Positions 18,829 to 48,404 are shown, counted from the whole stretch's first letter. The stretch is DNA of 54,198 nt, filler included, from Squatina squatina (GCA_031763465.1; 3 parts of 3 records of this genome joined end to end with filler, not necessarily neighbours in it); one strand, 5' to 3'. The notes: a model not told the origin generated them from the letters alone. A program made the numbers and translations.

Positions 18829-18872
18829 NNNNNNNNNNNNNNNNNNNNNNNNNNNNNNNNNNNNNNNNNNNN

Positions 18873-22806: not shown

Positions 22807-23258
22807 TTATTTGATTAAATTAGTAATGTGAGCCAGGGGACGCTTAATCATATTCTTTAATTCCTCTCTGAATTTGCTCTGGGACACTGCATAGATAAAA
22901 GTGTTTGTGCAGGAGCTCAATGACATAAGCAAAAGCCCGGATACTTCTAAAGTGGTGAAGGGTTCGCGGCAATCTGCTTCTAAAAAATGATTATCGGTAA
23001 ATAGTACACATATGTAAACTATGAAAATGACCATCCATAATAATAGAAAATTGCCAGATATGGCGAGTAGTAAAATGATGGATTTCCTTCGTTTCTCCAT
23101 TTCTGGATCAGTGTGATTCTGAAGCTTGAATGCTCGCAGACCACTCCTCAATCTATTGGCCACTACAATGTGCCTGATGGTCAGGGCATTGAGCAGCAGA
23201 ATCAAAACAAATGGTGCAAATGGCGTGAAAATGGATTCCAGCCACAAAATTAGTAACG
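22807..23258 (-). pseudogene. GPR139-like GPCR paralog B, exon 2 remnant (TM5-TM7 + tail open; TM1-TM4 missing)
   Basis: WLESIFTPFAPFVLILLLNALTIRHIVVANRLRSGLR...DPEMEKRRKSIILLLAISGNFLLLW...LSSCTNTFIYAVSQSKFREELK; family hallmarks DPEME.RRKSIILL and SCTNTFIY. Confidence 0.85.
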
Positions 23259-24448
23259 CTTCTTACTCTGAGAGGATGAGCAATCGACAGTTCTTGTATG
23301 AATTTCAAAGATGTTTTTCGCATCACTCAAATCTCTCTCTATTTCTCCCAGTCTAGTGGGTAAGCCGAGTAATCATCTGGGCTTACCCACGAGATTGGAA
23401 ACTAGTTACGCATCGCTAACCTAGTCTGCATTTCTTTGAAATACATAGGACATGTTTAGATTTTCAACTTTCCACTGAATGAAACATGAGCTTTTCCGAC
23501 TTGCGGCCAGAATTGAATCCGCCCGATTATCATATCCATTCACTTCAACCGAAAGGAATGTACGGCCAGCTGGTGGGGGCGGGGAGCCAGAAGGGCAATG
23601 ATTTGCTTATCCTTCTCCTCCAAATAGACCATAGCGTAACTTTCCATCTGTCCTTCCGGGAGCAAATTGGCGTTGTGGATCCACCAACAGCCAACATCCT
23701 GTGGCCGAACTCACATCGTCTGTTTTCAGCCAAACGTTCGATTGACAATGTACCCCAGTATCTGCTCATTTCTAATATCCTCAGTTACTATGCAGTGCAG
23801 GTTTCAAAGTGATAATAAGATTCTGATTGTACTGTTCTTTCATTCAGTCTTATGGAAGCAGGTGCAATTTCGTAGCAGTTGTCTTTCCAGTGCTTTTCCT
23901 CATCAAGTGACTGGCAAAGGAAGATTTCTCAGTGATACATTGTTTCATGAGCACAATACGATGATACCCATTTCATATTGGGTTGTGCTTCAGCTATAGA
24001 CCGCCCGAACCTTTTACTTCAAAGCAGCCAGTTAAATGACGAGCAATACATGGGTCTGAACATTGCCAGAGGGAATTTATGATATATCAGTTACTATTAT
24101 ACATTTGGAAGCAGGCATTCCTCAGATTTAAAAATTTAAAGCGCATTTGAAATTTAGTTTATAAATAATGTGCATAGCTATTAATATCAAACAGAGATCC
24201 GGAAATAATGTCTGTGCCTTGCAAACAGCACCAGGATTGTCTTGGCTGGCAAGACGTTATCTCCCACTCGATAACCAGTTTCTTATACAATGGAGCTGCA
24301 CATCGGGAGGCGCTGAGAGCAGCCATTCCGCCCAAGAAATTCTACCTCAGATAGCTGCTGCTGCATGAATAGCTCTCCTTAAATAAGTTCTCAGCAATGA
24401 TCAGAAATGTATATTTAGCTGTGTATTTGAATCCAAGTATATTTATTG

Positions 24449-24580
24449 TCAAAAGCAAAACACTGTGGATGCCGTAAATCTGAAATAAAAGTATAAAATG
24501 CTGGAAATACTCAACAGGTGAGGCAGCCTCTGTGCAGAGAGAAACAGAGTTAAAGTTTCAGATCGATGATATTTCGACAA
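24449..24580 (-). mobile_element. Penelope-type terminal repeat copy
   Basis: aaaagcaaaacactgtggatgc...atgctggaaatactcaacaggtgaggcagc...gagagaaacagagttaaagtttcagatcgatga. Confidence 0.6.
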
Positions 24581-26494
24581 AATAATTACTGTCAACACAT
24601 TTGACATAAAATGTTTCTTTAGCGTCCAATATGAGACGAATAACCTAAAAAGCAATAGCTTTTTCTCAGATGCAAATTTCTGTCAAGTGTGGAAGCGTAA
24701 GCTTTGGCACTGTAGCTTGTACAAACATTGCACTGGAAATCCCTGTGACTGTATCGGCATTCCATTTAAATTATTATATCCAAATAAATCTATTATCCGT
24801 CTGTGTTTGACGTGTGATGAGGTATTAGACTTTCCAGCTGTGGTCGTGAATAACAAGCTGTTTTTTTTTTCAATCTACCAAATTCTGTGTTGAAGTCCAA
24901 CATTGAGGTCAATTATTTATCTGCTTGTTTATGAAATGGGAAGTAAGCACCGGTAGCACGGAGGGTAATTTTCACCTTTACCACATGGATGACAACGTGA
25001 AGAACGGATGACCTTCCCATAGTAAAGCCCGCCCGAATTTCATCCCATTGTTGCCCCTGCATCAAGACTGCTGTGTCTGTTGCTGCACTATTTAAAAAAA
25101 GTAATAGCGAGGGGTCTGCCGATCTCCCGTGGTAACTTCAACCCGATACACTGTTGATCCTGGATGACAAAAATCTTGATCGAAGCTGTGGGAGAAGAGC
25201 AGTCGAAATTCTAATGCAGTCACTGTACTTTGACCATGCAGACGAAACTTGGGATAGATTGTAGTTTATATCGCCTGAATATTAAACATCGGCCGACCCT
25301 GTGATTAGAAATTGGTTTTGCGCAGTGGCGTTGAGCAGGAGGTTGCACATCGGCCGCCTGTTATACACCTCGCTTGATATTGAGTTCGACATAAATCAAT
25401 GGAACTGGACATCAGGCGGGGAGTGAGAGGCAGGCACGATGGCGCCGTTCTACCCCTGTGTGTAGAAAGGAAAATATGTCAGCAATGACTGCAGGTGTTA
25501 GCAGATCCCGCCCGATTTTTTTTCCATTCAGAATAATGGAGGAAAATCCGCTCTTTTTTGGCAAGTCTATAATCCGCGCGGAGGATTTGGCTTTTTATGC
25601 TTGGCCGAGATGATGCAGAAAACCCTGCATGTAAAGATTAAAATCGATCGCATGGTTCTCGGAGAACCAACTTTCTTCCATTGATAGTAATAGAGGACAA
25701 TCTGTTGCTGTCTTTATGGAAGCATATCCTCTGCGATAGCGAATAGGCAGTACAAAGTACATTTCCATTGATTCCTCCCGCACCACAGTGCGCTCTAACA
25801 AGATGAAACTAAATCACCAGGTGGGAAAGACGAAAATCTACACCTATATTTAAAGTACAAATACGCCTAAAACATCGAATAGAACCCAAAATGTGATCCG
25901 CTCACAGGAAATGTCTGGTGAGTCTGAGCATTCAGCCTTTTCACGCGGCTGGCCAGTTGTCTGTGAGACGGGAACCCGGACAGCTCCCGGTTGGGAAAGG
26001 GGTAGGGGGGAGGGCAACAGTTAGCTGCGATGCTGACCTGGCAGCTTGTTCGGTCTCCGGGTGTGATTCAATTCCAGGGATGTTACAATACGACAGCTAT
26101 GGGCTGGGGTGTACTTGTGAGTGCGGGAGAATCTCTTGTTTGTCCAAGTTTCATAAATATATAACAGAAAGTTTTTTGCCTTTCATTGAGCAGCCTCGGG
26201 GGATTCCTTTAAGAATCTGGTTTCATCAGATCCTAATGCTTGGATCAGCCACACAACGACAAGAAATTCTATCGATGCCGAGACATCCGTAAATAAACTT
26301 GCTGAATTTAAATATTCAGAGCAAACTCTGTTTCCTCTCAGTTTGTTATATTAAAAATATAACAGAAACGTGAAACTATTTGAGTTATCTCTTTGATGCG
26401 GTAATTTCAGTCTGCAAATAAAACACAACAAAGCAAACAGATAATATCATTACAACTGTTAAAGGTGAGTATTAACTGGTTATAATCGGCTTAC

Positions 26495-26564
26495 CAGGAA
26501 CACCAACTATTGCAAGAATCGGATAATAAATGTTTTCTATCTGTATGATTACGGGCTGTCCCAT
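26495..26564 (-). CDS. GPR139-like GPCR paralog B exon 1 (intact)
   Basis: ATG...CCTG|gtaagc, 70 bp, phase 1; MGQPVIIQIENIYYPILAIVGVP (YYP.LA.VGVP family motif). Confidence 0.85.
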
Positions 26565-26624
26565 ATTCGGAGAGGAGACGTTGACTGTAACAGTTCCGGG
26601 CACGCAGATTTTTGCTTTCAAAAT

Positions 26625-28839: not shown

Positions 28840-31418
28840 GTCCGGAACCAGGTTATGGAGATCCTCACATAGTCTGGAGAAAGGTTATGGAGATCTTCAG
28901 GTAATCTGGCAAAAGGTTATGGAGATCTTCACCTGGTCTGGAGCCTGCTTATGGAGATCTTCGGCTGGTCTGGGGCCAGTGATGGAAATCTGCAGCTGTT
29001 CTGGAGCCAGTTTATGTGGATCTTCAGTTGATCTGGGGCCAGGTTATGTGGAATTTCAGCTGGTCTCGAGTCAGATGATGTCGATCCTCACTGATATGAA
29101 GCCTGGTTATGGAGGTCGTCAGCTGGTCTGGAGCTAGGTTATGTATCTCCCTATGCTAGGTTATGTATCTCCCTATGCTAGGTTGAATCGACACCTCTGC
29201 ATGTGTTTACCTATAATCACTCTTTAATAAGCTGCTCTGGAATGAAGATATGTGGATATGCAGCTGCTCTCGAGCGAAGTTTTGGAGATCTTCATCTGGT
29301 CTGAGCCAATTCATGAAATATCTTCAGCCGAACTGGAGCGAGGTTATGGAGATCTTCAGCAGGGTTGCTACCAGGATATGGAGATCACCATTTGCTCAGG
29401 ACTCAGGTAGTGGAGATCTTGAGCTGGTCTGGAGACAGGTTATTGGGATCTTCAGCTGTTCTGTAGCCATTTTATGGAGAACTTCAGCTGGTGTGGAGCG
29501 AGGTTATGTAGATCTTCAGCTCCTCTGGAGCCATGTTATGGAGATCTTCAGCTGGTCAGGAGCCAGTTTATGGAGATCCTCCACTGGTCAGGAACCAGGT
29601 ACTGGAGATATTCAGCTGGCCTTGAGCCAGGTGATGGATATCTTCAGCTGGTCTGGATCCAGGTTCTGTCGATCTTCAGCTGGACCAGAGCCAGTTGGTG
29701 GAGATTTTCACCTGGACTGGAGCCCGATGATGGAGATCTTCATGTGTTCTATCGTCAGGCAATAGAGATTTCAGCTGATCTGAACCAGATCATGTCGGTC
29801 TTCATGTGGTCCTGAGCCAGGTAACGGAAATCTCAATCTGCCCTGCAGCAAGGTTATGGAGATGTTCCGCTGTTCTGGAGACAAGTGAAATGGATCCTTG
29901 GCTGGTCTGGAACAATATTACGTGGATCTTCAGCTAGTGTGGAGCCAATTTATGGAAATCTTCAAGTGTTCTGGAGCCAGGTTATATGGATCCTGAGCTA
30001 GTCAGGACAGGTATATATAGACCTTCAGATGGTCTGGTGCCAGTTTATGAGGATATTCATCTAATGTGGAGCAGGTTTATGGAGGTATTCTGCTGAACTG
30101 CAAACCAGGATAAGCCAATCTTCAGCTTGTCCAGCGCCAGGTTGAGGAGATGTTCAACTGATCTGGATCGAACTGATGGAGATCTTCAGCTGGTCTGGAT
30201 CTAAATGATGGAGATCTTCAGCTGGTCTGGATCTAAGTGATGGAGATGTTCGGCTGGTCTGGAGCCAAATAATGCAGATTTTCATCCAGGCTAGAGCCAG
30301 TTTATGTGGGCCCTCAGCTTGTCTAGAAGCAGGCTGTTTGCATCTTCAACTGGTCTTGAGCCAGGTTAGGTGGATCTTCAGCTTGTCTGGAATCAGTTTA
30401 TGTGGAACTTCATCTAGTCTGGAAGCAGGTTATGTTGGTCTTCAGCAGGTCTGGAGTGAAGTTATGGATCTCTTTCACTGATCTACAGCCAGATTGTGGA
30501 GATAGTTATCTGGTCTACAGCCAGGTAATCTGGATTCCCAGCCAATCTGGAACCATTTTCTGGATATCCTCAGCTAGTCTGGAGCCAGATTACGGAGATA
30601 TGCAGCTTGTCTGGAGCAAGGTTACGTGGATCCTCAGCTGGTCTGAAGCCAGTTTATGGAGTTGTTCAGCTGGTCTGGAACCAAGTTATGTGGCTCTTCA
30701 GCTGGTCTGGAGCCATATTATGCAGATCTTCAGCTCGTCTGGGGCCAAGTTATGTTGACCTTCAGCTGGTCTGGAATCAGTTTATGTGGACTTTCAGCTG
30801 GTCTGGAGCCAGGTTATGGAGATCTTTATCTGGTCTGAGCCAAGTTCAGGAGATCTTTAGGCGAACTGAAGCCAGATTATGGCTAGTCTGGACAGGATTA
30901 TGCAGGTCATCAGCTAGTCTGGAGCCATATTACAGAGATCTGCAGCTTGTCGGGAGAAAAGTTATGTGGATCCTCTGCTGCTCTAGAACCAGTTTATGGA
31001 GTCGTTCATCTGTTCTGGAGCCAAGTTATGTGGATGCTCATCTGCTCCGGAACCAGTTTATGGAGATGTTCAGCTGGTCTGGAGCCAGGTTATGTGGATT
31101 CTCAGCTAGTTTGGAACCAGTTTATGGAGATCTTCAGCTTGGCTGAAGGAAGGCTACGTGGATCCCCAGCTGGTCTGGAACCAGTTTATGGAGTTGGTCA
31201 GTTGGCCTGGAACCAATTATCTGGATCTTCAGCTGTTCTGGAACTGGTTTATGGAGTTGGTCCGCTGACCTGGAGCCAATTATGTGGATCTCCAGCTGGT
31301 CTGGAGCCAATTATGTGGATCTCCAGCTGGTCTGTAACGAGTTCATGGAGAGGTTCAGCTGGTCTGGAGCCAGGTTATGTGGATCCTCAGCTTGTTTGGA
31401 ACCAGTGTGTGGAGATTT
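28840..31418. repeat. 32-bp tandem satellite, left block (~75-80 units)
   Basis: Consensus tggagatcttcagctggtctggagccaggtta; e.g. near-identical consecutive units at 30177-30208 and 30209-30240. Confidence 0.97.
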
Positions 31419-31419
31419 T

Positions 31420-32450
31420 TTATTTAATTCGTTCCAGGAATGTGGGTGTTGCTGGCAAGGTCACCATTTATTGCCCATCCCTCACTGCCCTTGAGAAGGT
31501 GGTGATGAGCCACCTTATTGAACTGCTGCAGTCGTTGTGGTGAAGAAACTCGCACAATGCTTTTAGGGAGGGTCTACCAGGACCTTGACCCATTGACAAT
31601 GAAGGAATAGCAAAATACTTCCAAGTCAGGATTACGTGCAACTTGGAGGGAAACTTGGAGCCTGTGCTGTTCCCATGCGTCTGCTGCCCTTGTCCTTCTA
31701 GACAGTAGAGATCATGGACTTGGGAGGTGCTGCCAAAGAAGCCCGGGTGAGTGGCTGCAGTACTCATTGCAGCCACAGTGCACCGGTGGTGCAGGGAATG
31801 AATGTTTACGGTCATGGAAGATCAAGTGGACTGCTTTGTCCTGGATGGTCTTGAGTGTTGTTGGAGCTGCACTGAAAGTGGAGAGTATTCTATCACCCTC
31901 CTGACTTATGCCTTCTAGATAGTGGAAAGGCTTTGGGGAGTTAGGAGGTGAGACAATCACCACAGGAAACCCAGCATCTGACCTGCTCTTTTAGCCGCAG
32001 TGTTGCTGTGAATGGTCCAGTTTAGCTCCTGGTCAAAGTTGACCCCCAGGATTTTGATGTTGGGGGATTCAGCGATGGTAATGCCATTGAATATCAAGGG
32101 GCGGTGATTAGATGCTCGCTTGTTGGAGACAGTCATGCCTGGCACCTTTGTGGCGCAAATGCTGCTTGCCACTTTTCAGCCCAAGCCTGGATGTTGTTCA
32201 GGTCTTGCTGCATGCAGGCGTGGACTGCTTCATTATCTGATGAGTTGCACATGGTACTGAACACTGTGCAGTCATCAGCGAACGTCCCCATTTCTGAACA
32301 TATGATGGAGTGAAGGTCATTGATGAAGCAGCTGATGGTGGTTGGGCCTAGGACACTGCACAGAGGAACTCCTACAGCAATGTACTGGGGCTGCGATGAA
32401 TGCCCTCCAATCACTACAGCCATTTTCATTTGTGCTAGTTATGCCTGCAG
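31420..32450 (-). mobile_element. 5'-truncated CR1/L2-group LINE (RT domain to 3' tail) inserted in the satellite
   Basis: GVPLCSVLGPTTISCFINDL...FADDCTVF...QQDLNNIQAWAEKWQ; ILGVNFDQELNW; 3' tail ccaccttctcaagggcagtgagggatgggcaataaatg...gaattaaataaaaa. Confidence 0.92.
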
Positions 32451-33556
32451 CCAGGTGGTGGAGATCTTCAGCTTGTCTGGAGCCAGATATTGCAGATATT
32501 CATCTGGTCTGGAGCCAGTTTATGTGGACCATCATTTTGTCCATAACCAGGTTACTTGGATCTTTAACTGGCCTGGATCTAGGTTTGATGTGGCTTCATC
32601 TGTCTGGGAGCAGGTTATATTGATCTTCAGCGATTTACAGCCAGGTTATGGAGATATGTCCCTGATCTGGAGCAAGGTCTGTGGATTCTGAGCTGGTCTG
32701 GAACCAGTTAAGGAATACCTTCAACAAGTCTGAAGCCAGATTACCCAGATCTGCAGCTTGTCTCGAGCAAGGTTATGTGGATCATCAGCTGGCCTGGAAC
32801 CAGTTCATGGTGATGTTCAGCTAGTCTGGAGCCAGGTTATGTGGATCTTCAGCTGGTCTGGCGCCAGATTATGGAAATATTCAGTTCATCTGGAGTGAGT
32901 TTATGTGGATCCGCAGCTTGTCTGGAACCAGGTTTTGGAAATCTGCAGCTGGTCTCGAGCCCGCTAATATGGATCCTGATCTAGTCTGGATCAGTTTATG
33001 TCGATCTGCAGCTGGCCCGGAGCCAGTTTATGTGGATCTTCATATGATCCGGACCCAGGTTATGGTGACATTCTGTTGATCTGGAACCACGTTAAGCAGA
33101 TCTTCAGCTTGTCCACAGCCAGGTTAAGGAGACTTTCAGTTGGTCTGGATCCATGTTTTGGAGATCTTCAGCTGGTCAGGAACCAGATAATGGAGATATT
33201 CAGTTCTTCTGGAGCCAATTTATGTGGATCGTCAGATTGTGTGGAACCAGGTGACATGGAGCTTCAACTGGTTTGGAACCAATTTATGCAGATATTTAGC
33301 TTGTCTGGAGCGAAGTACTGGAAATCTTCTGCTGCCATTCAGCCAGGTTAAGGACATATTTAGCTGGACTGGACTAGATTATGGGGGCCTCCAGCTGATC
33401 TGGAGCCAGGTTATGGAGATATTCAGCTGGTCTGGAGCCAGGTTATGTGGATCTTCAGCAGGTCAGGAGTCAGGTTATAGAGATCCTCAGCTTGTCTGGA
33501 ACTAGTTAGTGGAGATGTTCAGCTCGGCTGGAGAGAGTGTATGTGGACGTGCAGCT
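32451..33556. repeat. 32-bp tandem satellite, right block (~35 units)
   Basis: Same consensus resumes after the LINE and stops at the LTR. Confidence 0.97.
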
Positions 33557-34125
33557 TGTTGGAGGGGTGGATTGATTAAGACTTCACTCGACACCCAGGT
33601 CTGTTCCAATCGTCAAAAAGGTTATTGTTTTACACTGGTGGGGAGCAAGTAATGGGCAAACCATGCGCTTTAGCTCCCGAACAAAGAAAATCATACGTGT
33701 CTTACACATTTACGCAGCCGATGTCGGCTGGCTGCAATCCAATCACAATTTTCGTTGATTACATACACATCCAATCCAATTAGTAATTAGACATCATGTG
33801 TCTGCACGATGAGCTCGTGGTCAGTCTCTGACCTTCCTGTGATGTTTACCAGACACCTTTCCAATCGAAAGTGGGCTCTCACTTACATTGCTCAAGACTT
33901 TTCTTATCTCCTCCACATTCTGGACATATCTTGTGGTGAGCAGTTGCACCGTGCAGCCGCCGGCCTTCTAAAAAGGAGACCCGGTTGAGCGCGGATAACT
34001 GGCTGGGTCTGTGGCCACAGGAATGTGGACAAGCTATTAGAGCTCCCATGATGCCTTGCACACCAGTTGGTAACAACCTATTTGATATGTATATGTAGCT
34101 GCTTCGGCCATGGCTGGCTCTAACA
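33557..34125 (-). mobile_element. 3' LTR of an endogenous retrovirus/LTR element (~569 bp)
   Basis: Minus strand begins TGTTAG and ends CCAACA; polypurine tract GGAAAGGTGGGG immediately 5' (34127-34138); several CCAAT boxes at 33739-33865; abrupt boundary with the satellite. Confidence 0.8.
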
Positions 34126-34329
34126 ACCCCACCTTTCCGCAATGGCCTACCCTTGGGCCCATTAACCGACCGATAGGGTTATACATTGCCCGGTATTCCC
34201 TGCCTCAAGCTTCCGGGCCAGTCACGTGATTTCGGGAATTTTGCTCATTCAGATCAAATTAATATGTCCCAGATTAACACTCGCTTTCAATGCCAAGTGC
34301 CGTTTGTGCAACCTTGCTGTGACCTCCCC

Positions 34330-35224
34330 TTTTCTTTTCGCAGGGTGCATCATCTACAAGACGTGCAAGCCATTATTCCCCTTGTCAGGGCTAATATTAT
34401 TTGCACGGCTAACAGTACGTGTGATATTATTCTGATCCAAGGGTGGATGTTAACATTCATCCCTCATTCCCATACCTCCTCCCACCAGCTTGGGCTTTAG
34501 AATGTTCGTTCAGTATCTTCCTCGAGGGCCTCCAATTTGCTCTGTAACTGGTGGTAGAGTCTGATCGACTGACCCACCCACTGTCTCATTTCCCACAACT
34601 GCTCCGCTTGGTGTGGGATCGGTGCCTGTTCCGGCTCTTCAGACTCTTTAAGATGATCATGGAGCTGATCAGTTGCGGTGAATGGCTCCAGCTCTCATTG
34701 CTGGAGGTGGACCATGTGGGCCTGAACTATGGTCACTGGCCGGCGAGGGGTGAAACAGAAATCAGGATAAGGAATGGGGCAGCTTAAGCGTCCGTAGCGG
34801 TATGATCTTTCCGAGTGGAGATGCAATACTTCCCCTCTCCTCCATGTCCTGACCGTGCAAAATGTTGTGGGGCAGGGGTGATTTCAAGGACACACACTTC
34901 AGTTAAAACCACACTCGTCCAATTCCCCCTGTCCAACCAATGGGGGCATATAGGCATACTACCCTGTTGTTTGCATCCGGTAAAGGAGACCCTGTATAGA
35001 GTCCCGTTCCTGTGCATGACATGAACATGAGTGAGGTGATATCGGAGGGAGGTATTGTCTCGTATAACTTTGATATTTTCCAGCTGGTCTTGGGGGAGCA
35101 GTCCCGTATTTGCAGTTACAATCGGAATCATGAGGACCACCCTTATCCCAGTTATGTGGCTGGCTTCACAATTGGGGACTACTGGGTGGACCCTTGTCAG
35201 ACATTTCAGGGCACAATTGTCTAG
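34330..35224 (-). pseudogene. Decayed envelope glycoprotein C-terminal half, F-protein-like (candidate lokiretrovirus-type env)
   Basis: Cys-rich ectodomain with N-glycosylation sequons (NTS, NGT), heptad region LYHQLQSKLEALEED, Trp-rich SWWEEVWE*G, hydrophobic TM WIRIISHVLLAVQIILAL; located directly upstream of PPT and LTR; stops and frameshifts. Confidence 0.75.
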
Positions 35225-35268
35225 NNNNNNNNNNNNNNNNNNNNNNNNNNNNNNNNNNNNNNNNNNNN

Positions 35269-35280
35269 TTAATTAATTAA
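35269..35280. other. Artificial contig linker TTAATTAATTAA inside an N run
   Basis: Same construct as 18817-18828. Confidence 0.95.
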
Positions 35281-36351
35281 NNNNNNNNNNNNNNNNNNNN
35301 NNNNNNNNNNNNNNNNNNNNNNNNCATTCCTGTGGTAGTTTTGTGGCAGATAGTTTGTGAGGCATCTTGACATCCGCTAGGCCAGAAATTCCATGGTACC
35401 TTGTGATTTGCGTTATGCATATGATTAAAACCTTGTGAGGTTACATTTTTATACAAAGAATAAATAACCAGAAAGAGAGGATGAAAGGAAACACAGGAGA
35501 ATTCTCAAACTAATACTTGTCACAGTCAAAGTTAATGAATGCAAATACTGAAAGAGACAGCTTCTAATATAAAGACTGCAATTTTGCAATAACTGGCAAA
35601 TTCACGAGGGTATTTGTGACTTTTAATTTGTCCTTACCCATCTCTTGCAGAGATTTTGCGGTTGTGACATTTTTAAACGCGACTTGAGGAACGTTTTAGA
35701 AGTGGAAGTGGAGAACAGAATGTCTTTACTAAATGTTGGGATACATTCCATTGCAAATCGGTTGTACCTTTCCTTCTGCACGCTATTTCCAGTCTCTAAC
35801 TGTTCCACAACTCAGAATTATGTGAACGCAGAATACACCTGTTTTATCATCTTAAAAAATCATCCACAAGCAGTATATAAAGGGAAAAATTAAGACATTG
35901 CTGCCTTCACTTCAGAATGAGGACCCAGGATACAAGAAGAAAGCAATGTAGGAGGGGAGCAAACTCTGAGATCAGTTATATTTCCTGGGTAACATTCATG
36001 GTTAAGTGAGAAGCATGGACTTACATAGATATCATCTTAATCGGCCTATGCAAGGAGTTGTGAGGTGATATGGGGAGATCCATTGCTCAAAGAGCCAGAC
36101 ATTACCTGTCGGGGTAAAGCTACTTCATATCCTCATAACCTGACATATTACAGTATGTCAGGAATGTGCCAATCTATCCAATTCTATTGATCAGGAAATA
36201 TATTTATGTCCTGATACATCTGATCTGCGGTATTTTCCTGATATTTTATATTTTACCAATATGTTTCATAGCTTGGAATTGAGTCAGAATACTATGGATG
36301 ATGATGATCTTTAGGTTTCAAATCTTTGGTCTTTAGGTTCCAAATAATCGA

Positions 36352-36800
36352 GGGGTCCAAAATTAGCCTCCTTTAACGTCCCATTAGCGCCTCCGAGGGG
36401 CATTAATGGGACATTTAAAAAAAAAAGGCATCGGGAGGCGGCCATCTCGCCTCCCCCAAAATTCAGCTGGGGTGTAAAGGCCTTTGCGTCTGCCCAGCTG
36501 AATTTCGCAGTGGGTCGGCGCGTGATGACATCAAGACGTGCGCCGACCCGCACCGCGTAGCTGCAGTGCCCTCGGCGCTCCATTTGCGTCCCGCGGGCGA
36601 AATTCACCCACGCGAGGCGGCCACAGCGCGGGGCGGTTGCAGCAACAGTAAAACCTGTCGCTGCAACAGGCTCCTTAAAGGGGAGGGCATCTGCGCCTCC
36701 GGCCGCCATTTTTATTTATCAGCCGACTTTATAGTCGGCCGATAAATGGCAGCCCCTCAGCTGGATCGGGCCACCATCACCTCGCCTGGCATGCCGACTG
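36352..36800 (+). mobile_element. GC-rich Harbinger-type non-autonomous element fragment
   Basis: Starts ggggtccaaaatt; CpG-rich; internal hairpin tttatcagccgact-ttat-agtcggccgataaa (36715-36746). Confidence 0.5.
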
Positions 36801-36802
36801 GT

Positions 36803-36837
36803 GTTCTGACGAAGGGTCATCGACCCGAAACGTTGAC
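36803..36837 (+). ncRNA. Minimal type I hammerhead ribozyme motif (probably degenerate)
   Basis: Core boxes CUGAnGA (36806-36812) and GAAA (36827-36830), stem II GGGUC/GACCC, palindromic ACGU in place of stem III, GUU cleavage triplet, 3-bp stem I. Confidence 0.45.
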
Positions 36838-36935
36838 TCTGTTTTTCTCTCCACAGATGCTGCCTGACCTACTGAGTTCTTCCAACATTTTTTGTCTATA
36901 CTCTAGGTTCCAGCATCCGCAGGATTTCGCTTTTG
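36803..36935 (+). mobile_element. Penelope-type terminal repeat with a minimal hammerhead ribozyme motif
   Basis: gtt-CTGACGA-agggtcatcgaccc-GAAA-cgtt-gac followed by ctctccacagatgctgcctgacctactgag...ttccagcatccgcagg. Confidence 0.6.
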
Positions 36936-39469
36936 TACACTAAAAGCTGGTCAGGTATTCCTCGTCCGAACCTAGGGCTGGTTCCTTTCATTTTCAGTGG
37001 GAAAAGTTTACCAAAAAAAAATGACTGAAGCCCCTAGCACAGCATCATCCAAACCAGTGCATATGTCTATTTACTATGCTGCATTCATCTCAAACCTCTT
37101 GTGCTGCTGATTGATTGATTAAAATCCTTCAGCAGGAGGTGGGACCAAGTTTCATTTCCCAGGTGTGTTTTTTTAAGTTAGTTTTGGAAGTTTTTAAACT
37201 AATATTAAAGTGAAATGGAACCAAAGAAACAGAAGGAAATTGGGCTGAAATATATTACAAGCTAAAGTTGATTGTTTTTGAGTCGTGCACAAGTGTTTGA
37301 AACCCAGCAAATTTGAGAGATCTTGGGCAGCCACATTTTTCTGAAAAGCTCAGAGTCTCTTTATCAATTACAAGTTTGCACCTCTGCATTGCCGTATAAT
37401 GGCATTTGTACAAACAAGGCAAATTACAGTCGGTATTGGACTGCAATGTATTGTATTTAATTCTGGAAAAAATGGTTAATTGAGACACCATTCTCTATCA
37501 GTTCATCACCATTTAGCATAACCCATTAATTCAAACTGAAAGACAGTGGTAATCAGAGTGGGAATGTGCCCTTAGTAAAATAATCTCCTAATGACTGATA
37601 ACAACTCCAGTTGTAAATGTAATTCCTATCAGTCCTCTTGCTGTGGCTTAATCCCTTATTTGTTGACATTTTATGCAAATTAGTTTGGGTAAATTCTAAG
37701 GCTTATAGTTTGTNNNNNNNNNNNNNNNNNNNNNNNNNNNNNNNNNNNNNNNNNNNNNNNNNNNNNNNNNNNNNNNNNNNNNNNNNNNNNNNNNNNNNNN
37801 NNNNNNNNNNNNNTGCATAACTGTCATTCTGAGACTTTGCACTTGCATACTGGACCCAGATGGAGCCTGTAAGGATAAGCTTTTCTGAACAACTGTGTAG
37901 GGAAAAATCTAAAACTGCATACATATTACCTACAGTTGCTCCAGTCACTCGATCTGTCTTACTATCATGTTTCATCACGAGGACAGAACTATGTGACAAA
38001 AACATTTGAGACCACATCAAGCAAGGGGTGAAGCTATTAAACCATTTCGCTGATGCACTCCCATTGACTACAGTGACGGGAATATGATCCTTTTATATTA
38101 AAGTTTGAGAATTTACAGCTGTCCAATACATAAACGTTGTCCAAAGAGATCGTAGGAGCTCATAAGGCAAAAGAATACATCATAATGTTCTCAGACATTT
38201 TAACCCCTTTTGTGGCAATATCGCCTGAGCATTCCCTATTAAATATGTTGTGAGACTTCTGCAAAGGCAGCAATTCTCACGATGGTATGGTTGTTGATGT
38301 CATGACACTTGTTGGTTTAGGAGTCCCTTTATTATGCTCAGAAACACTGGCCATTATTCTTTCCAATGTCACAGATCTAGCCATCTATATCTTTCCATTT
38401 GACCAGTCAAGGGGGTCACTTCAGATCCTATCCGGATGAATTGGTGCGAGTTAGGACAGGGGAGCGGAGTTTTGGATGACCTCAAGTTTACAGAGTAGAA
38501 CGTACAAGCGTCTATCGCGATTGTAACATTGCTGCTACAATGCAAGTATTTATGTACTGCTACTTAATTCTCTTTAAACAGAGCAGTAATGAATATATTT
38601 GCCACCACACGCACCAAGGTCACTCAATTCATTACCTACACACCCACTCAGATGACATTTGGATAACATTCAATATTTTTTTTTACCTGAGCCAAGTTTT
38701 TTAAAAAAAAAAGGGCAAATCTTGCAATCTCCCAGTGCTTTAGGACTTTTGGTACTATAGCCATATTTACATTGGCACATTTATTATAAAGTAAAGTTAC
38801 TTGTTACAAATAAACCACCCAACACACTGGTCACCCAAGAGCACCGTGGAACTCAACCTGGTGCCATTCATTCTTTACAGCTCCTGGGTGATTAACAATA
38901 TACAATTACACTTCCACAAAACACCATTTTATACTGCAGCAAGTGGATCGGTTTAAAATGGCCTAAGCTGGTTAGCACCATGCACTCACTTCCAACAAGT
39001 GGCTAAACCATCTAAGTATATGTGAACGTAGACAAACAAATGCCCAGATATTGGAAATGGTCTAGAATTATAAAAATTGATCCGTTTTCATTTGTGTGGC
39101 AGGAAGTGGTTCATCCTGGCTGGTGTCTTCAAAACAGACCCGTTAAAGATAAATTTCTGCATCAGCAAATGCGGAATCAGAAATTGTCAGATGGCCCATT
39201 AAGCTTGCATCTTCCACACATGTGCAATTTACCCTATAATGGTCTCATACTATTCATTTAATCTCCTGAAAACAAATTCTGCAGAAATGCTTCAAGATCC
39301 CTACGGAATTCCTGATATTCATCCATTCCCATATTTAGCCCTGGCCTCTGCAATTCCAGGCAATATTCCCACTCTCCTCCCCAGCCCTAACTATTGCATC
39401 TCAGACTCCTTGATCGATTGGAACTAGTTTAAAACCTAAATGTGAAAACTCAACATGACTAAAGCCGGT

Positions 39470-40095
39470 GCAAATTGTAAGCTTAGTGGCTCAGGAAAAA
39501 ATGACAGACTGAAGGTCACAATTTACAATACAACCAAGTAAGCGAGGACACATGGCTCTCCTATGAGACAAGAGGTGAAGATTTCATTTTTTAGTATTCT
39601 AAAGGGACCAGACAAATGTCGACCATGACAGGCTGTTTCACTTTGTCTAGAACAGTAGAACCAGAGGACACAGCCTGCACTTGAAAGGGAGTAAATTCAA
39701 ATCTAATCCGCGGAAATATTACTTTAAGCGAGTGGTCAATCTATGGAACAGGCTCCTGAGACGGCGGAAGCAGATAATGTTGATTCATTCGAATGAAATA
39801 GATTCCTTTCAATAAATAATATTTTGTGATACTGTGCAAGAGTAATTTGAGACATGACATATGATAAACGTAGAATACTTGGGAGGAATAGATAATTTTG
39901 GACCAAGGTTTCCAAAGTTTTTCACCACTGGGGGTTTCCTCGCCTCATATCTGGGTCGTTGTAGACTAATTGATAAAAATTGAGTGCCACAATTAATCAC
40001 AACTCCATTATCATTGTATCAAGGGACTACCAGGATTGTAGAAGGCAAACTAGATGGGCCTTGGTCTTTTATCTTGTAGCAATTCTTATGCTCCT
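39470..40095 (+). mobile_element. CR1 LINE 3' end, decayed
   Basis: RTRGHSLHLKGSKFKSNPRKYYF/RVVNLWNRL is the CR1 ORF2 C-terminus; ends ...ctagatgggccttggtctt...ttcttatgctcct. Confidence 0.75.
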
Positions 40096-40223
40096 AGGAG
40101 GCATGTGGGAGCTGCTCAAGTTGACTCGCTGACTTGATATTTTTATCTTGAACTGCTGAAGTCCTGGTCATGATTGATATGCCACCATGAGAAGACTAGT
40201 GGTCACAGATCAATGTTCTAATG

Positions 40224-40307
40224 CAGTAGGCGCAGGCAGGTAGTGCAGGAGTCCCCTGTGGCCATCCCCCTCTCAAACAGATATACCACTTTGGATATTG
40301 TTGGGGG
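40224..40307 (+). mobile_element. CR1 LINE ORF1 fragment
   Basis: RQVVQESPVAIPLSNRYTTLDIVG (PL.NRY..L motif preceding the ORF1 esterase domain). Confidence 0.7.
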
Positions 40308-40809
40308 NNNNNNNNNNNNNNNNNNNNNNNNNNNNNNNNNNNNNNNNNNNNNNNNNNNNNNNNNNNNNNNNNNNNNNNNNNNNNNNNNNNNNNNNNNNNN
40401 NNNNNNNTGTTCACCCAACACGAACTGGTACCAAAGGGAAAAACTGGACACTTCTGACAAACAGCTTCTAAGAAACCAGCAGAACGGGAACTTGAATGGA
40501 CATCAATATTATATTAAAAATCTTGTGTTGGCATGCACACTATCATAACCTCTAATACAATTATTACTAATTGGCATGCCAATACTAAATGCCAACACTT
40601 ACTTGTCACATTTACCTGTAACTATTTCCTATCATACCACCAGGTGATGTTTTAATGGGAATCCCAGTGTTATTGACAAATGGTCTGTAATGTTTGTCTG
40701 TCACAACACTAGGTGGTGCTGTATTATCTTTTCCCCACAAATCATTCAAAATGCTTCCTGGGAAGAAAAAAATTATTCATCATTTTTGCTAAGTAACAGA
40801 AATTTTTAG

Positions 40810-41080
40810 GAGGCCCAATTGGTCTGCTTTAGACAAGTGGTAGCGCCGAACAGTGTGCGCTACCCGGGCTTTAAAGCAGCGCAAAGCTAAATTTAATTAG
40901 TTTCATCAATTGGGCATGGCGCCCCAGCAGCGCTAAGGCTTCCTCACCTAGGACGCCATTGACGCCAGGCTAAGGTGCACGACGTCACCGGGTCACGCAA
41001 CAACCCCACAATGCCGGCCCGCGACCCCCTTTTGCGTCACCAGCTAGCCGCGGCAGGAATTAGAGCGCAGCTCACCGGCG
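40810..41080 (+). mobile_element. GC-rich Harbinger-type MITE fragment
   Basis: CpG-rich block with agcgc/gcgct subterminal motifs, running into a gap. Confidence 0.35.
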
Positions 41081-42161
41081 NNNNNNNNNNNNNNNNNNNN
41101 NNNNNNNNNNNNNNNNNNNNNNNNNNNNNNNNNNNNNNNNNNNNNNNNNNNNNNNNNNNNNNNNNNNNNNNNNNNNNNNNAAAACTCTAATGTGGATGGT
41201 AGATTAGTATGTGAATATCAGGTTACCCAATTGTCAGTTACTGCAGCTCAATGTTATTCTTTGGCTTTCTGATCCATTTACATGGTGCACTGGTGAACAT
41301 TTCTGCAGCTATAATGAAAACCTTGTGTCCAATCCCATTAAATAACCGTTAAGGTCAGCACGTATTAAATGACAAGGTGATTTACACAGTGTAATGAATG
41401 TTTAAATGGTTCTATTTGCTTTTTCACCACATACTTTAGTTTGAGTCAAATTTTTATGTCTCTTCTTTCATCACAAATTCACTGCTCTTTCCACAGCAAT
41501 CACCTCATTGCCAGCACCTTGCCATATAGTGGAAATTGTGGTAAACCACTTCCCAATACCCTTGCAATTCAGCACCTTCTGTAATATTGAAAGCAAGTTG
41601 AATGATTTGGACTCCACACAAATCTGCTCAGCAGATTTACTGTAGCAGCTGAGACAACGTAATAGAAACTACATTATTGAAGTCTTTAATCATCGGTAGA
41701 AATATTAAAAGATGCCACCTATTACTGCATTTGCTTTTTTGATCACATTAAGTTTGTAGTGTAAGCCATTGATTTTATCAATCACAACTACCACCTTCAG
41801 CAGCAGTAAAAGACATTAATGGATTATTTGCGAAATGCTTTATTCATAAGGATTATTTCTGTGTAATTTTTTCTGATCTTTATACATGACTCCCCAGTGT
41901 TATTAAACATCAATGCCCTATATTATAGGCAGACAACCTTCTTATTAGTCAGAATTTGTTGCTTCAGATGAGTTAGGATTCCAGTAAAGTGGTCTTTTTT
42001 GTCTATTTTCCCCGGCAGTCTAGAGTAGGGGTTTCTGGGACTGTCGCTAATGAAGTTTTTACACAGGTCAGTCAACGCATTACCCTCTGCTTTAATGCCA
42101 CTCCCAATCTTCATAGTTACATTTGTTATTATACATCAAATTATAAAATTTAGTTATAATA

Positions 42162-42719
42162 GGGCCAAAATTCCTCTGTTCTGTGCCTCCTGTTATCACC
42201 TCCGAGGGGCGCTAACGGGGCGTGAAACTGTTTTCGCCCCGGTGGGGGGAGAGGGGGGGCACTACCAGCTCCTGTGAAATTGTGCAGGAGTTAGCGAAGG
42301 TACAAAAACGGTAGCGCCACGCCTCCACTGGTAGCGCCCTGGGCTGCTGCGCCTCCGGCGATGACATCATTGCCGTGCGCGGTGACCCATTTTCACTCCA
42401 CGGCAACCCCTTTTCACCCCATGGTGGAAATTGGCCAGCGACCTGTGAGGCTGCCATGGCCGATACCCGCGCCAGCCTCGTGGGTCGTGACCCAAGTTAG
42501 TCACCCATCGCGGGACCTTACAGGGGTGTGCCTGTCGCCATCTTTGTTTTTTTCCCCCCTTACCAGTCGGGTGCTTGCCACTCCTTTTGCGGGCCACGAT
42601 CGTGCAGCCCAGCACTCCATCTAAGTGCCAAGCTGTGGCCACAGCACCCCTTAGCCTTGGTGGCCCAGTGGAGGTCTCCAAAGGGCCTGCAGAATTCGCA
42701 GTGTCCCTCCCCTTTACCG
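42162..42719 (+). mobile_element. GC-rich Harbinger-type non-autonomous element, left part
   Basis: Starts ata|gggccaaaattcc; shares cctccgaggggc and gatgacatca motifs with 36352-36800. Confidence 0.55.
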
Positions 42720-44509
42720 NNNNNNNNNNNNNNNNNNNNNNNNNNNNNNNNNNNNNNNNNNNNNNNNNNNNNNNNNNNNNNNNNNNNNNNNNNNNNNNNN
42801 NNNNNNNNNNNNNNNNNNNTTGCTGCCTGCAGAATCTGTGCTGGAAATGGTTGAGCAACAACTTATGCCTGAGGAAAGTGATCATCTGTCAGGTGGGAGC
42901 TTTTACTGTTCATTTCATGCTGTCAACTGATCAGCTGGAGCAATGGCCACTGAACTCCCACCTCAGGCTGACAGACATGGTTCCCATGCTGAGTGAATCC
43001 CGTGGCCATACAGGGAAATTTAAAAAGTAAGTGAAAAAAGGATCTTAAATGCCTGTAAGCTACCTGATAATGATTTCAATTGGGTTGCCTGCCGCTGCCG
43101 GTCGGGTCAGCTCCACGATGACAGACGTGCCTGGGGGAAAGGCGCGTGGGAGAGAGATAACAGCAGATTCCCAACTTGCTTTCAAAAATAACAACTTTCT
43201 AACCCGACCAGCCACCAATTGCATTCGCTAACACACCAGAAGCTTCCGGCCGAAGAGTGGAATTTCAGCTGGAATCTACATAGAATTACTTTTTTTAATC
43301 AAAATATTTTTTTTTAAGTTTTGAGCTTCCTTCCAATAGTACAATTGAGTTTCTACTGGAGACGAGAGGAACACCTGTTGTGTCAATTTCTATGCAAGAA
43401 CAGATTTTGTCGTAGATTTGCTTAGATTCATGCACACATATAGAAGAATGGCATTATCTCATAGCAAACCATGTCACATTCATCGTAATTGTATAGACTA
43501 CCTTTGCCAAGTAAAAATATTCTCCTGATTATTTTTTGCTTTAGATTGAGCGCTCAAAATACAGGCAATCCACTGTTAAACATTACCCAATCAGAGCAGC
43601 ATATTTTGGAAGTGTGTGTAAAATATGAGTTTGGTCAGTATTTCTTGTTTTCCCTCAGAGTGAATGGCTGAGCAAATGATGAAATGTGTTGTGGTACAAA
43701 GGTTTGCAAATTGGCCAATTTTATCTGGAGTTTACAGAGATCTCAATCCAAGCGTGTAATGTCTTNNNNNNNNNNNNNNNNNNNNNNNNNNNNNNNNNNN
43801 NNNNNNNNNNNNNNNNNNNNNNNNNNNNNNNNNNNNNNNNNNNNNNNNNNNNNNNNNNNNNNNNNGTTTTACTAGGTTAAAGGCATTATATAAATACAAG
43901 TTGTTGTTGTTGAATTTAATCTAATTCACCGTGCAAACCGAGCTTGGTGTCAATCTTTTTCTAACTGCTCTCTTTCTGTCTGAGAGCTACTGGACCTTAC
44001 CATCTAAATTATCATATATAGGTTAGTGCCGGTTGTAATATTTAAGTCATACTTTATCAGTTATGATGTGACCTTTTGTAGTGTATACTCAATTCCGGAA
44101 CACCATGCCAAGGCTACTATTGCAGTTTTTTTTTCTTTGCCAGGTCTTGGGAGTACCCTGGCTATTGACCAATATTTTCTTTGGCAAGACATCCTGGATT
44201 CCTAGTCTGGCAAGAGATTGCTGTTCTGAAGCTTTTGGCAAACAACATAGGTCCTGTCAGACAGCTGGTTTTGATTTAGAGCCTGTGTTGGAGTCTACAC
44301 TATGTTTTTTCAACCATGTTTGCAGACCATTCACAATGGCAACTTCACATCAGAGCTGACTTGCCAATGTAAACTATCACTCATTGCGCAATGTGACCAC
44401 TGGATTCCACAAATCCTGCCATAGCACCCACGACCACCATCTCAAGAGATATAAGTCACCAAAAGGAGAGAAAGCTGAAGACAGAAGCAAAGTGGGGCGA
44501 TAGAGAGAA

Positions 44510-44807
44510 ACAGCATTTATATAGTGCTTTTCACAACAACGAATAAAGTCGTTTTTGAAGTGTAGTCGCTGTTGTAATGTAAGAAACCAATTTGCACACA
44601 GCAAGCTCCCACAAGTAGCAATGTGATAATGACCAGATAATTTTTTTTTAGTGATGTTGATTGAGGAGCAAATATTGGCGAGGACACCAGGGATAACTCG
44701 CCTACTCTTCCTTGAAATAGTGTCATAGAATCTTTTACGTTCACCTGAGAGGGCAGACAGGGCCTCAGCTTAACATCTCATTCGAAAGATGGCACCTCTG
44801 ATAGTGC
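44510..44807 (-). mobile_element. SacSINE1-like DeuSINE (Deu domain + tail)
   Basis: atttatatagtgcttttcac...gcacacagcaagctcccac...aggacaccaggg...cacctgagagggcagac...catctcattcgaaagatggcacctctgatagtgc. Confidence 0.8.
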
Positions 44808-45423
44808 NNNNNNNNNNNNNNNNNNNNNNNNNNNNNNNNNNNNNNNNNNNNNNNNNNNNNNNNNNNNNNNNNNNNNNNNNNNNNNNNNNNNNNNNNNNNN
44901 NNNNNNNTTTACTGTTTGTTTCTCTACAGTAATGAAAGAAATTATCTACTTCCAGGACCACCATAGCTGCTTAAAATGCTTTTTTAAATTCTCCTTGTAC
45001 TGACGTGAAGAAAGAAAGAAAGTGTAAAATAAAAGTGCATTGTCCTTTTAGCACAGGCGTACTATTAGTTTAATTTGCCCGTTGCCGTAACTTGTCTAAA
45101 ATAAAAGTACCCTTTATGCACATTCCACAGTCATCTTGAAGTGGTTATGACTCAATGACTAAAATAACAAAATAGGCATTGTATCTACAAGAATGCCAAA
45201 TGGTTGCGTCTCCCAATGATTTATTATAATTACTATGATTAGAATGTTTTACCATTAATACGATGTAAAAAGAGAACCAATCTATGATTCGCAAAGATTT
45301 TTTGAACCACAATTATTGGTAAGTAATTGTGATATTTTTATTAAAAGCTGTTTAAAACCTGCCAATCCACGTTCATCAACAACAACAACTTGCAATTATA
45401 TAGTGCCTTAACATAGTGTCATC

Positions 45424-45472
45424 TGTGGCTGAGTTGGTAACCCTGTCACCTGAGCCAGAAGGTTGTGGGTTT
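45424..45472 (+). mobile_element. tRNA-derived SINE head (A box, start of B box)
   Basis: tgtggctgagttggtaac...cctgagccagaaggttgtgggtt. Confidence 0.6.
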
Positions 45473-48339
45473 NNNNNNNNNNNNNNNNNNNNNNNNNNNN
45501 NNNNNNNNNNNNNNNNNNNNNNNNNNNNNNNNNNNNNNNNNNNNNNNNNNNNNNNNNNNNNNNNNNNNNNNNTTTAAAACCAAGCTTGAAGTCACTTCAT
45601 CATGAAATCCTCATTTACTTTGTCTTTTTTTTTGGCCCTTTTCAATCTTGGTGATGCCTTGCACTATGGGCTCTAGCACTTTACTTTCCATTCCCAATTT
45701 TAAAATATCTGGACAAAGTGACCTCCCACTACATAACATTATGGATGTTGGTATAAAATTTCAACCAGTAGTCAGATTCAAACAACATCTTTCATTCATA
45801 ACTAAATTACACATCTGCTATTCAAGAGCAACTTCATTTTCTTAAAGTTACAGCTTGGGTTTTATTTTAAAATGACTGTATAAATCTTGCAAGCTAAATA
45901 ATCAAATATAAGACACAATAAATCAATCGTTCACCAAATTTGTAATTGTGACGCTCCTTGTGGATTAGCAGGGAAATTATTCTAATGTGGGAAATATTTG
46001 CCCTAGTTATTCAAAATGTGGAACATATGGCATTCATTTAGCATTACAAAACTCCTCAGGGCTTCAGCTTTCTGCATTCTTGTGCTTTTGGATAGTACAT
46101 AAACCATCAGTTCACTATTTAGCTTTCAATTCACTGGAACGTTGTGTACATGCTCTGTGGCACCATTATACCAACAAANNNNNNNNNNNNNNNNNNNNNN
46201 NNNNNNNNNNNNNNNNNNNNNNNNNNNNNNNNNNNNNNNNNNNNNNNNNNNNNNNNNNNNNNNNNNNNNNNNNNNNNNTTGGGCGTTGCGCCCAATGATA
46301 ACATCATTGAGTCCCTCTAATGCTGAACTCTGCCTTTTCAGCCTTAAAGCTTTAACGCCCATTAAGCGCCCGTGTTAAGGGGGGAACAAATTTCCCATCG
46401 CTAAATTTAATGCCCAAAATGAGCGTTAAGACCTTAATGCCGATTTAGCGCTAGATTAGCGCTGAAAAAATGACGAATGGGGCGCCCTTGGTCCTTTACA
46501 CACACACATATATNNNNNNNNNNGGTACCAGGGTAAATTCTGTGATGCAGCAATCACAATGGGAAGTTACACTTGCAGGGGGCATGGGTCATAGATTGGA
46601 TACAACATTTTAGCCGTGATTCTCTGGCTTGCCCCCACCGATAATGTGCAATCCACCCATATAATTCCTGCAAATCATGCTAAACTTCAAGCAGCCATAA
46701 AGATCAGATTCTTAGCTCACCTGCCCTTGTTATATTTTCCTCCTGGTCACACTCTTATGTGACATAACGTACAAAAGCAAAATAAGGAAAAACTCACAAC
46801 TTGGTGTTGTATTGGTTTCATTGGTTCATGAAGTAATCATTAATAGGAGCAGCTTGTAAACCTCAGGGAGCTTCTGGCCATGAATAGCTGTTAAGTTGTG
46901 GTATTGAGGGCTTGTGAATGTCCATGGTCCCATACCTTAATATGAATCATAATGTAAGAAGCAGAGGAGAAAATTTGGAGAGAAAACACTAAAATAAGTG
47001 TACCTGTAAATTTATTTTACAGCACTTGGGAAACTATTTATAAAGTAACCACTAACGTAACTTTAAAGAACTGTAAACTATAAAACCTTAAACTCAAAAA
47101 AGCATGTCTGATCTGTAAAAATATTTGCTTATAGCATTACACAGCACTCATGTATATCCATCTGTCAAGAACAAGTCATTCTTTAATGCTCGCTGCACAG
47201 AATAACAAGGTATCACTGCAAACATTCTCCTTTGCTAATTACATTTAATTTAGGGTTTTCTCTCCAAATTCTCCCCCTTAGCCCTCCATTTCAGCACATG
47301 ATGACTCATGCTGAAGTATGGGTCCATGCACATTGGCAGCTCTCCGCTAAATCCAAGCAGCCTTTCTTGGCCAAAGCCTCCCTGATGCATAACAACTGCC
47401 CCTTTTAATGACTAATTCATGAACCAATGTAAGGCCAAGCAAATGCAATAAAAAGTGTTAAATGCAGCACATTGTTTGATTACAGTTTTGNNNNNNNNNN
47501 NNNNNNNNNNNNNNNNNNNNNNNNNNNNNNNNNNNNNNNNNNNNNNNNNNNNNNNNNNNNNNNNNNNNNNNNNNNNNNNNNNNNNNNNNNGGGAATCATT
47601 GAGAAATATTAAAAGTTAATAATTAAGAGGTTCTTGCTTTTGCAAGAATTGGGTCTGAACTTTATGACACGCGGCATAGACTTGGGTTCTCCTTGGTTAA
47701 AGTTACAGGTGATAAGTAACCCCCTTATCACGTTACAAATTTATGCACCAAATTTGAACCTTCCAAATTTTCCAGTTAGAAACTGGTCGGGATAGTTAAT
47801 ACAGTCCACAAAAATTTACCTCATGGTCACATTATAAAAGGCAACTGCAATCCATTTTGATTGCAATGCACCATTTTCTGCACTGCAATCTTATTCAGAA
47901 AATATGTTTTAACTTTTACATTCTAATACAAGAATCTTTTTCTTGTCGTTTTGTAACTTAATCTTTGATTTTGGATATAAATTAGACAGGCAAAATAATC
48001 TGAAAGTCATTATGTAGGATGATTGCAAAATAATTAGAAAGATTTCCTTCCAACCATTTCAAAGAATCTTTTTCAATTTCTTGCCAGTGGAGGTCAATAG
48101 GTGAAATGACTTTCCCTTTCATCTTTTAGCACAGTATTGGAGTTTAATATCCAGCACAGCTGGATAAACGGAGAAGGTTGGGCGGGTGAAGTGATGAGTT
48201 ATTTTTGCTTGAGGGTAGAAAACAGAATGAATCTAATAGCACCTGCACAGGAAAATGGTGTAAACTGTATTAAATATAATCCTGGTAACATTTCATGAAA
48301 GCAAGAAAGAGTGCCAATGTGTGGTTAGCCAAAAGAACA

Positions 48340-48404
48340 GGACTTTCTTTTCATGGGTTTTCTTAATTTTTCTGTTTTTATGAAAACCCGTGAAATTAAA
48401 GCCC
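48340..48404. mobile_element. Tiny TIR-only Harbinger-type element / hairpin
   Basis: ggactttcttttcatgggttttc vs reverse complement of right end gggctttaatttcacgggttttc. Confidence 0.5.

Follow-up and report, generated by a model that had tools for sequence, protein, structure and literature searches.

The reading that we favour, on a slight balance of probability, is that the minus strand of a stretch of Squatina squatina DNA (GCA_031763465.1) preserves the dead 3' end of an endogenous retrovirus (ERV) family which is spread across sharks, which encodes an envelope protein (Env) predicted to be F-type, and which likely belongs to a clade III or snakehead-like retrovirus rather than to a lokiretrovirus. 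The window is the whole stretch of DNA that was analysed, 54,198 nucleotides with filler included, joined from three parts of the genome. Although the locus itself is a dead fragment, the env family to which it belongs matters for the question of how retroviral Env arose. LTR elements with an F-type Env are known already, and what is likely new is a family of shark Envs that are extended at the N-terminus, probably carried on a non-Loki backbone. Our searches of the open-licence PMC and bioRxiv literature turned up no shark ERV, and no member of the snakehead clade, for which an F-type Env has been described, and the available portions of PMC9040795, PMC12583693, PMC13709493, PMC2717909 and bioRxiv 2024.03.17.585361 report no F-type shark ERV Env; the shark ERVs described with filovirus-like ectodomains are of a different type (PMC11521997).

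Four scenarios for the origin of retroviral Env were left open by Wang and Han (PMC7947760), and going by that account an F-type Env on a canonical cartilaginous-fish retroviral backbone would speak for those scenarios that make F-type ancestral. We put forward tentatively, with somewhat more doubt than belief, that sharks carry still-young canonical (non-Loki and non-foamy) retroviruses whose F-type Env bears its own N-terminal receptor-binding module, and that F-type is the ancestral state. If this is true, F-type Env would be found, together with foamy viruses, lokiretroviruses and errantiviruses, on every deep branch round the root of Retroviridae; retroviruses would then have started out with an F-type envelope, later replaced by Env of gamma/HIV type.

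The decayed env, its LTR and their surroundings

The element is read on the minus strand, where env-like frames extend from 35224 down to a stop codon at 34289-34287 and are followed by an untranslated spacer of 148 bp (34139..34286), a G-rich polypurine tract (PPT) of 12 nt of which 11 are purines (34127..34138), one base, and a 3' LTR of 569 bp with TG...CA ends (33557..34125). This is the order that the earlier note had reported. The decayed 3' half of env (34287..35224) was identified by six-frame translation, by tblastn of natural homologues and by blastp, in which both of its frame pieces align to one natural homologue with 53% and 60% identity; it represents the C-terminal ~310 codons, approximately residues 389-690 of a whole homologue of 714 aa. 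Three frameshifts (near 34940, 34902 and 34812) and four internal stop codons (at 34697, 34499, 34466 and 34352) interrupt the frame, so that this copy is dead and cannot make protein, in agreement with the earlier description of a decayed copy.

Several parts of the protein can still be followed through the damage. The Cys-rich and likely beta-rich part of the ectodomain lies at 34740..35224 and, judging from the Cys pattern of the homologues and from the motif order of lokiretrovirus (Loki) Env compared by eye, would correspond to F domains I/II. Heptad repeat B (HRB, 34500..34619) has the top heptad score and aligns to residues 593-633 of the homologue P0007, for which antiparallel packing against a trimeric heptad repeat A (HRA) is predicted. 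Then come a Trp-rich membrane-proximal stretch (34437..34496), seen in the translation and conserved among the homologues, and a predicted transmembrane anchor (34362..34439, with a Kyte-Doolittle peak of 1.95 over 19 residues), after which a short cytoplasmic tail extends to 34290.

The LTR starts with TGTTAGAG and ends with CTCCAACA, giving a terminal inverted repeat of 8 bp with 7 of 8 positions matching, and it contains four reverse CCAAT boxes at 33865-33743 and an imperfect poly(A)-like hexamer at 33626. An LTR with TG...CA ends, a short inverted repeat and a preceding PPT is what is required of an ERV. As a stand-alone proof of an LTR, the combination of PPT and inverted repeat was set aside, having 12 matches under loose rules on both strands of the window in a chance control. 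The LTR is called because it lies 161 bp past the env stop and because related contigs diverge at both of its ends: of the contigs of another run, one parts from the window at 33563 and a second at 34131, both no more than 6 bases from the respective LTR end, and the LTR is thus seen as a repeat in its own right that also sits between different flanks (one departing contig per end). The claim that this is an endogenous LTR element is borne out. Summed contig depth, a rough measure, is 51-81 just inside the LTR vs 15-35 upstream of the PPT. In one public run (X1) we found 65 related contigs over 33400-35224, covering env and LTR, of which 2 are at least 99% identical, 9 are at 95-99%, 20 at 90-95% and 34 below 90%, that is 54 of 65 below 95%. 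The contig leaving at 33563 carries a loose end of 255 bases (this one contig) that by eye looks like a primer binding site (PBS) for what would be a serine tRNA. A Ser PBS is present in the class III element XtERV-S and is not diagnostic (PMC8278194).

The element is cut by an assembly gap at 35225..35324, beyond which gag, pol, the 5' part of env and the 5' LTR are not seen, and there is no second copy of the LTR within the whole window. GC content is 38% beyond the gap vs 50% in env. No Pfam family was matched at E<=0.05 in the six frames of 35325-50000, and therefore gag-pol is absent from the 14.7 kb upstream. This gap and the one at 18773-18872 each consist of 44 N, a 12-base spacer with stops in all frames and another 44 N, the other gaps being of 100 N; this form is an assembly marker and has no biological meaning. 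On the other side, outside the element, the host flank consists of satellite arrays of 32-bp units (28840..33547, by Tandem Repeats Finder), which extend over ~4.7 kb and stop 10 bp short of the LTR end. One X1 contig spans the satellite-LTR junction (33461-33612, with 7 differences in 152), so the same junction is present in another sample, reflecting either an old shared insertion or a copy borne by the satellite. What the locus preserves is the relic of a germline insertion next to a satellite.

The env family in sharks

When the C-terminal env piece, with its stops written as X, was searched against a database of 5.8 billion sequences, two proteins among 129 candidates, of Mustelus asterias and Pristiophorus japonicus, came up at E~1e-51, and the N-terminal piece gave no homologue among 51 candidates. 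Judged by these comparisons, the reading as env is far beyond chance (E=1e-51, with the 53% and 60% identities given above). A profile search, which finds only relatives with shared exact 5-residue words, returned 15 homologues among 6676 candidates, 14 of them with shark names and one unnamed, and the anticipated shark family was thus recovered. The named genera are Mustelus, Pristiophorus, Chiloscyllium and Heterodontus. The earlier note had called for a search for copies with an intact env, and this search was productive: there are five whole ORFs of 699-722 aa, cluster look-ups included. Scans of viral contigs and of metagenome contigs gave no relative of the env family.

The Mustelus copies lie on at least four different contigs and are 88-99% identical, which is the pattern expected of a young multicopy ERV. 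Chiloscyllium contributes nine chiPu_ gene models and one C. plagiosum protein; we take the chiPu_ tag to belong to the C. punctatum assembly that was screened for lokiretroviruses. In two trees, of 11 and 21 rows and built with homologues aligning over fewer than 110 or fewer than 80 residues left out, copies cluster by host, most forks of the second tree being weak, and the locus copy sits on a long branch nearest to Pristiophorus, from which a shark is the likely host of the sequence. The pattern of copies is that of a multicopy ERV family which would be young in Mustelus and decayed at the present locus, and not of a single co-opted gene, and the whole, nearly identical Mustelus ORFs indicate that the family was recently active. 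Its members are annotated merely as "uncharacterised protein" because they are missed by Pfam. The value of the locus is that it marks the env family in one more genome.

Anatomy and fusogen class of the envelope

Whole homologues are composed, in order, of a signal peptide, a Cys-rich extension of ~150 aa with a Pro/Thr-rich hinge, an F2-like segment, an RxKR site and a fusion-peptide-like stretch, which is followed by HRA, a Cys-rich middle, HRB, a Trp-rich stretch, one transmembrane anchor and a short tail (~35 aa). In P0007 the RxKR is at 249-252 and the Cys-rich extension occupies residues ~35-170, where the AlphaFold model is of low confidence. All three of the whole proteins checked have one furin motif and one transmembrane anchor. 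The Cys pattern of the homologues reads C472-x8-C481-x11-C493-x7-C501 ... C524, C539, C547, and the C-x8-C cluster presumably corresponds to that in F1 of paramyxovirus and pneumovirus F. The furin site, fusion peptide, HRA, HRB and transmembrane anchor by which class I fusogens are recognised are all found in the whole homologues, while the locus keeps only the part after HRA, and we regard it as nearly certain that the Env is a class I fusogen.

That it is furthermore F-type appears highly probable to us, and motifs, neighbours and a predicted complex together lend moderate to good support to the earlier view of an F-like, non-gamma Env. CX6CC and motifs resembling the immunosuppressive domain (ISD) are absent from the three whole homologues checked and from the C-terminal piece of the locus. 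The fusion-subunit ectodomain is ~400 aa long in the whole homologues, whose CxxC is found in the N-terminal extension, and the remnant has ~265 ectodomain codons ahead of its transmembrane anchor, consistent with the at least 250 aa counted before. A gamma-type Env was considered and rejected on these motifs and on the long ectodomain of the TM subunit.

Features in the ESM Atlas, which covers only clusters of 50 or more members, place gypsy Env and Baculo_F (0.95) and Fusion_gly of negative-strand viruses (0.94) on top for the homologue P0026, with the best 10 of 10 family matches falling within one clan; a feature score of 0.95 was reached by shuffled proteins once in 100. The structure neighbours of P0026 are Baculo_F, gypsy Env, two chordate clusters and foamy Env, at TM values of 0.39-0.46, i.e. 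below 0.5. F-type (class Ib) fusogens such as paramyxovirus F are marked by a three-domain core to which both subunits contribute, and by these neighbours the shark Env may have such a core. For a further homologue, P0016, the feature score is only 0.78 and the four best structure rows are F-type clusters. The F proteins of paramyxoviruses and pneumoviruses (PF00523), to which the 0.94 refers, share with the shark Env the order of cleavage site, HRA, Cys-rich middle, HRB and transmembrane anchor; they differ in having no sequence-level match to it and in relying on a separate attachment protein, whereas the shark Env is LTR-encoded and has its own N-terminal extension.

HRA (266-368) and HRB (590-645) of P0007, taken in three copies apiece, are predicted to form an antiparallel six-helix bundle with a score of 0.73, compared with 0.00 for the best of three controls, the controls being other than heptad peptides; contact agreement was at least 68% and partner pLDDT at least 68 in these runs. 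The mark applied to this score is reached by 51 of 78 solved complexes and by 2 of 108 mismatched pairs, a calibration from which the bundle job differs, and such a prediction fits any class I fusogen and may echo solved bundles.

The profile and fold comparison with Fusion_gly and with F structures of the PDB, which the earlier note had recommended, gave no significant match. Pfam hmmscan, whose HMMER filters discard most matches above E~0.1, found no fusogen family in any of the 17 proteins (0/17), PF00523 Fusion_gly and PF03408 included, and PDB sequence searches with two proteins and two profiles gave chance matches only and no fusogen. AlphaFold models from two alignments, with 17 and 15 close homologues, reached pLDDT 30.3 with pTM 0.18 and pLDDT 35.1 with pTM 0.25, and three Foldseek searches with these low-confidence Env models returned nothing at E<=0.001. 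Among the PDB rows with more than 200 aligned columns there were RSV F chains only, at E 6-9, and these were not counted.

The Env is predicted to work like an F-type Env. A signal peptide would direct the precursor of ~700 aa into the ER, where the protein begins a route on which furin would cleave it at the RxKR near residue ~252, and the newly exposed N-terminus would then act as the fusion peptide. Once extended, HRA would form a trimeric coiled coil along which HRB would turn back, and the predicted six-helix bundle that results would draw the membranes together. The likeliest receptor-binding part may be the Cys-rich N-terminal extension of ~150 aa on its Pro/Thr-rich hinge.

The retroviral lineage behind the envelope

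Neither RT nor RNase H nor a full integrase came to light, so that the evidence on the lineage is indirect. The piece of pol nearest to view is an integrase-tail-like stretch of ~35 aa directly 5' of env in P0016, with a weak match to MLVIN_C (E=0.15) that lies far under the cut-off (12.2 vs 29.2 bits). Its spacing is shorter than in the Loki tails compared, and it contains the word GPHEI, which is common to some Loki elements. As for the lineages available in the hosts, the RTs of chondrichthyan ERVs are mostly of clade III (PMC11089739), one elephant-shark ERV lineage groups with snakehead retrovirus (PMC4422223), and the snakehead retrovirus clade is found in all major vertebrate lineages (PMC6001957; PMC12193657). 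Snakehead retrovirus (SnRV; clade Huo, in part ERV clade III) thus resembles the shark family in occurring in elephant shark (PMC4422223), and differs in the tail of its Env, which has 136 aa (PMC12193657) vs ~35 in the shark Env. The earlier note had named a lokiretrovirus and, failing that, another LTR lineage with an F-like fusogen, and this second option is the better reading.

It is unlikely that the family represents a true shark lokiretrovirus (lokiortervirus) which was missed by the 2020 screen and whose diverged Env gained an N-terminal extension. Lokiretroviruses are recognised by four features: an RT from the clade that is sister to canonical retroviruses, a dual RNase H (tether plus RH), an integrase related to CGIN1 and a PF00523 match in Env (PMC7947760). 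Their Env is, like the shark Env, F-type and encoded by an LTR element of aquatic vertebrates, and the signal peptide, RxKR, fusion peptide, coiled coil and transmembrane anchor by which it is recognised (PMC7947760) are all present in the shark Env. By eye the motif order is also alike, with the F2-like part starting in GP-x-x-G-x-V-L and then RxKR, a G-x-P past HRA, an L-x-I-P strand and the Cys cluster, so the two are likely distant homologues, and host jumps of Loki elements are frequent (PMC7947760). An F-like fold is however not specific to Loki elements, because foamy Env and gypsy Env have such a fold. Against a shark lokiretrovirus, the Loki screen by RT tblastn and tree, as far as its available text goes, was positive in 0/6 chondrichthyan genomes, including both Chiloscyllium species in which the shark env occurs (PMC7947760), and PF00523 is matched by 0/17 of the shark Env proteins, vs E=2.2e-7 for Loki Env (PMC7947760). 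The architecture of Env differs as well: the Loki Env that was fully compared has neither the ~150-aa extension nor the second Cys group nor the Trp-rich stretch, and has another Cys spacing and another fusion peptide, that of the shark Env being more polar (PMC7947760). The shorter spacing of the P0016 integrase tail would point the same way, and the lokiretrovirus label is not supported.

Very unlikely, in our judgement, is an env-bearing Ty3/gypsy retrotransposon of errantivirus type residing in a vertebrate, which would not be a retrovirus at all. It is favoured by the Atlas, where errantivirus (Ty3/gypsy) Env and baculovirus F (PF07253, PF12259) are the best neighbours in both features (0.95) and structure, ahead of paramyxovirus F; with the Atlas limited to clusters of 50 or more members, close vertebrate relatives were unable to appear there. 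A GPY/F-type integrase tail occurs in gypsy elements too, but the only integrase-family hint from Pfam for the P0016 tail is the retroviral MLVIN_C. The hosts of errantiviruses and baculoviruses are invertebrates, and their proteins give no HMM-level match to the shark Env. The F-type fold is present in many gypsy elements (PMC13524379), whereas, according to what is accessible of the same survey, no intact homologues of invertebrate errantiviruses occur in vertebrate genomes (PMC13524379).

A slim chance is left to a fish foamy-like ERV with a reduced Env. Foamy Env (PF03408) shares with the shark Env an F-type (class Ib) core, a long fusion subunit and the lack of CX6CC (PMC11468914), it is among the Atlas structure matches (TM 0.41), and a cartilaginous-fish foamy ERV is, going by its title, in print. 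The shark Env nevertheless does not match PF03408, and with 699-722 aa it is shorter than the 990 aa of the foamy cluster. It has one furin motif and a short signal peptide, and whereas foamy Env carries its receptor-binding domain (RBD) inside the N-terminal subunit (PMC11468914), the F2-like part of the shark Env has no room for an inserted RBD, its extra domain being N-terminal of that part.

Similarly slim is the chance of a new retroviral lineage that is neither Loki, foamy, snakehead-like nor gypsy, or of an epsilon-like backbone with a recombined env. None of the 15 homologues has a non-shark name, yet this apparent isolation comes from a search that needs exact 5-residue words. The MLVIN_C-like tail is compatible with gamma or epsilon elements, and env swaps between ERV classes are known from XtERV-S (PMC8278194). 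Finally, a co-opted, syncytin-like host gene, of which the locus copy would be a pseudogene, is suggested by the whole ORFs annotated as genes in Mustelus asterias but is scarcely credible, as the whole ORFs are multicopy, up to 99% identical and clustered by species, and the heavily broken locus copy retains its PPT and LTR; on copy number and identity, co-option was rejected.

The neighbourhood of the preferred clade III or snakehead-like insertion includes some further features. On the strand of the LTR, and ~7 kb downstream of it, there is a gene for a rhodopsin-family GPCR (22807-26570, minus), of which a first-exon-like stretch near 26570-26495, closing with a GT donor, and a 7tm_1 ORF (22807-23262, E=6.7e-7) are visible; a decayed duplicate of this first exon is found at 20009-20105 on the minus strand. 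The gene resembles what we take to be an expanded GPR139-like family of sharks. In Mustelus, the gene model P0009 (LOC144504743) fuses env residues with a tail in which the same GPCR family seems recognisable by eye; this tail has no significant match in the window, and the model suggests that such ERVs sit in GPCR clusters in Mustelus too. Elsewhere in the window, a 42-bp tandem repeat at 4321-5185 has long open frames on both strands, and the weak match to SUFBD_core that it gives below the cut-off (E=2.4e-5) is probably an artefact of the repetition.
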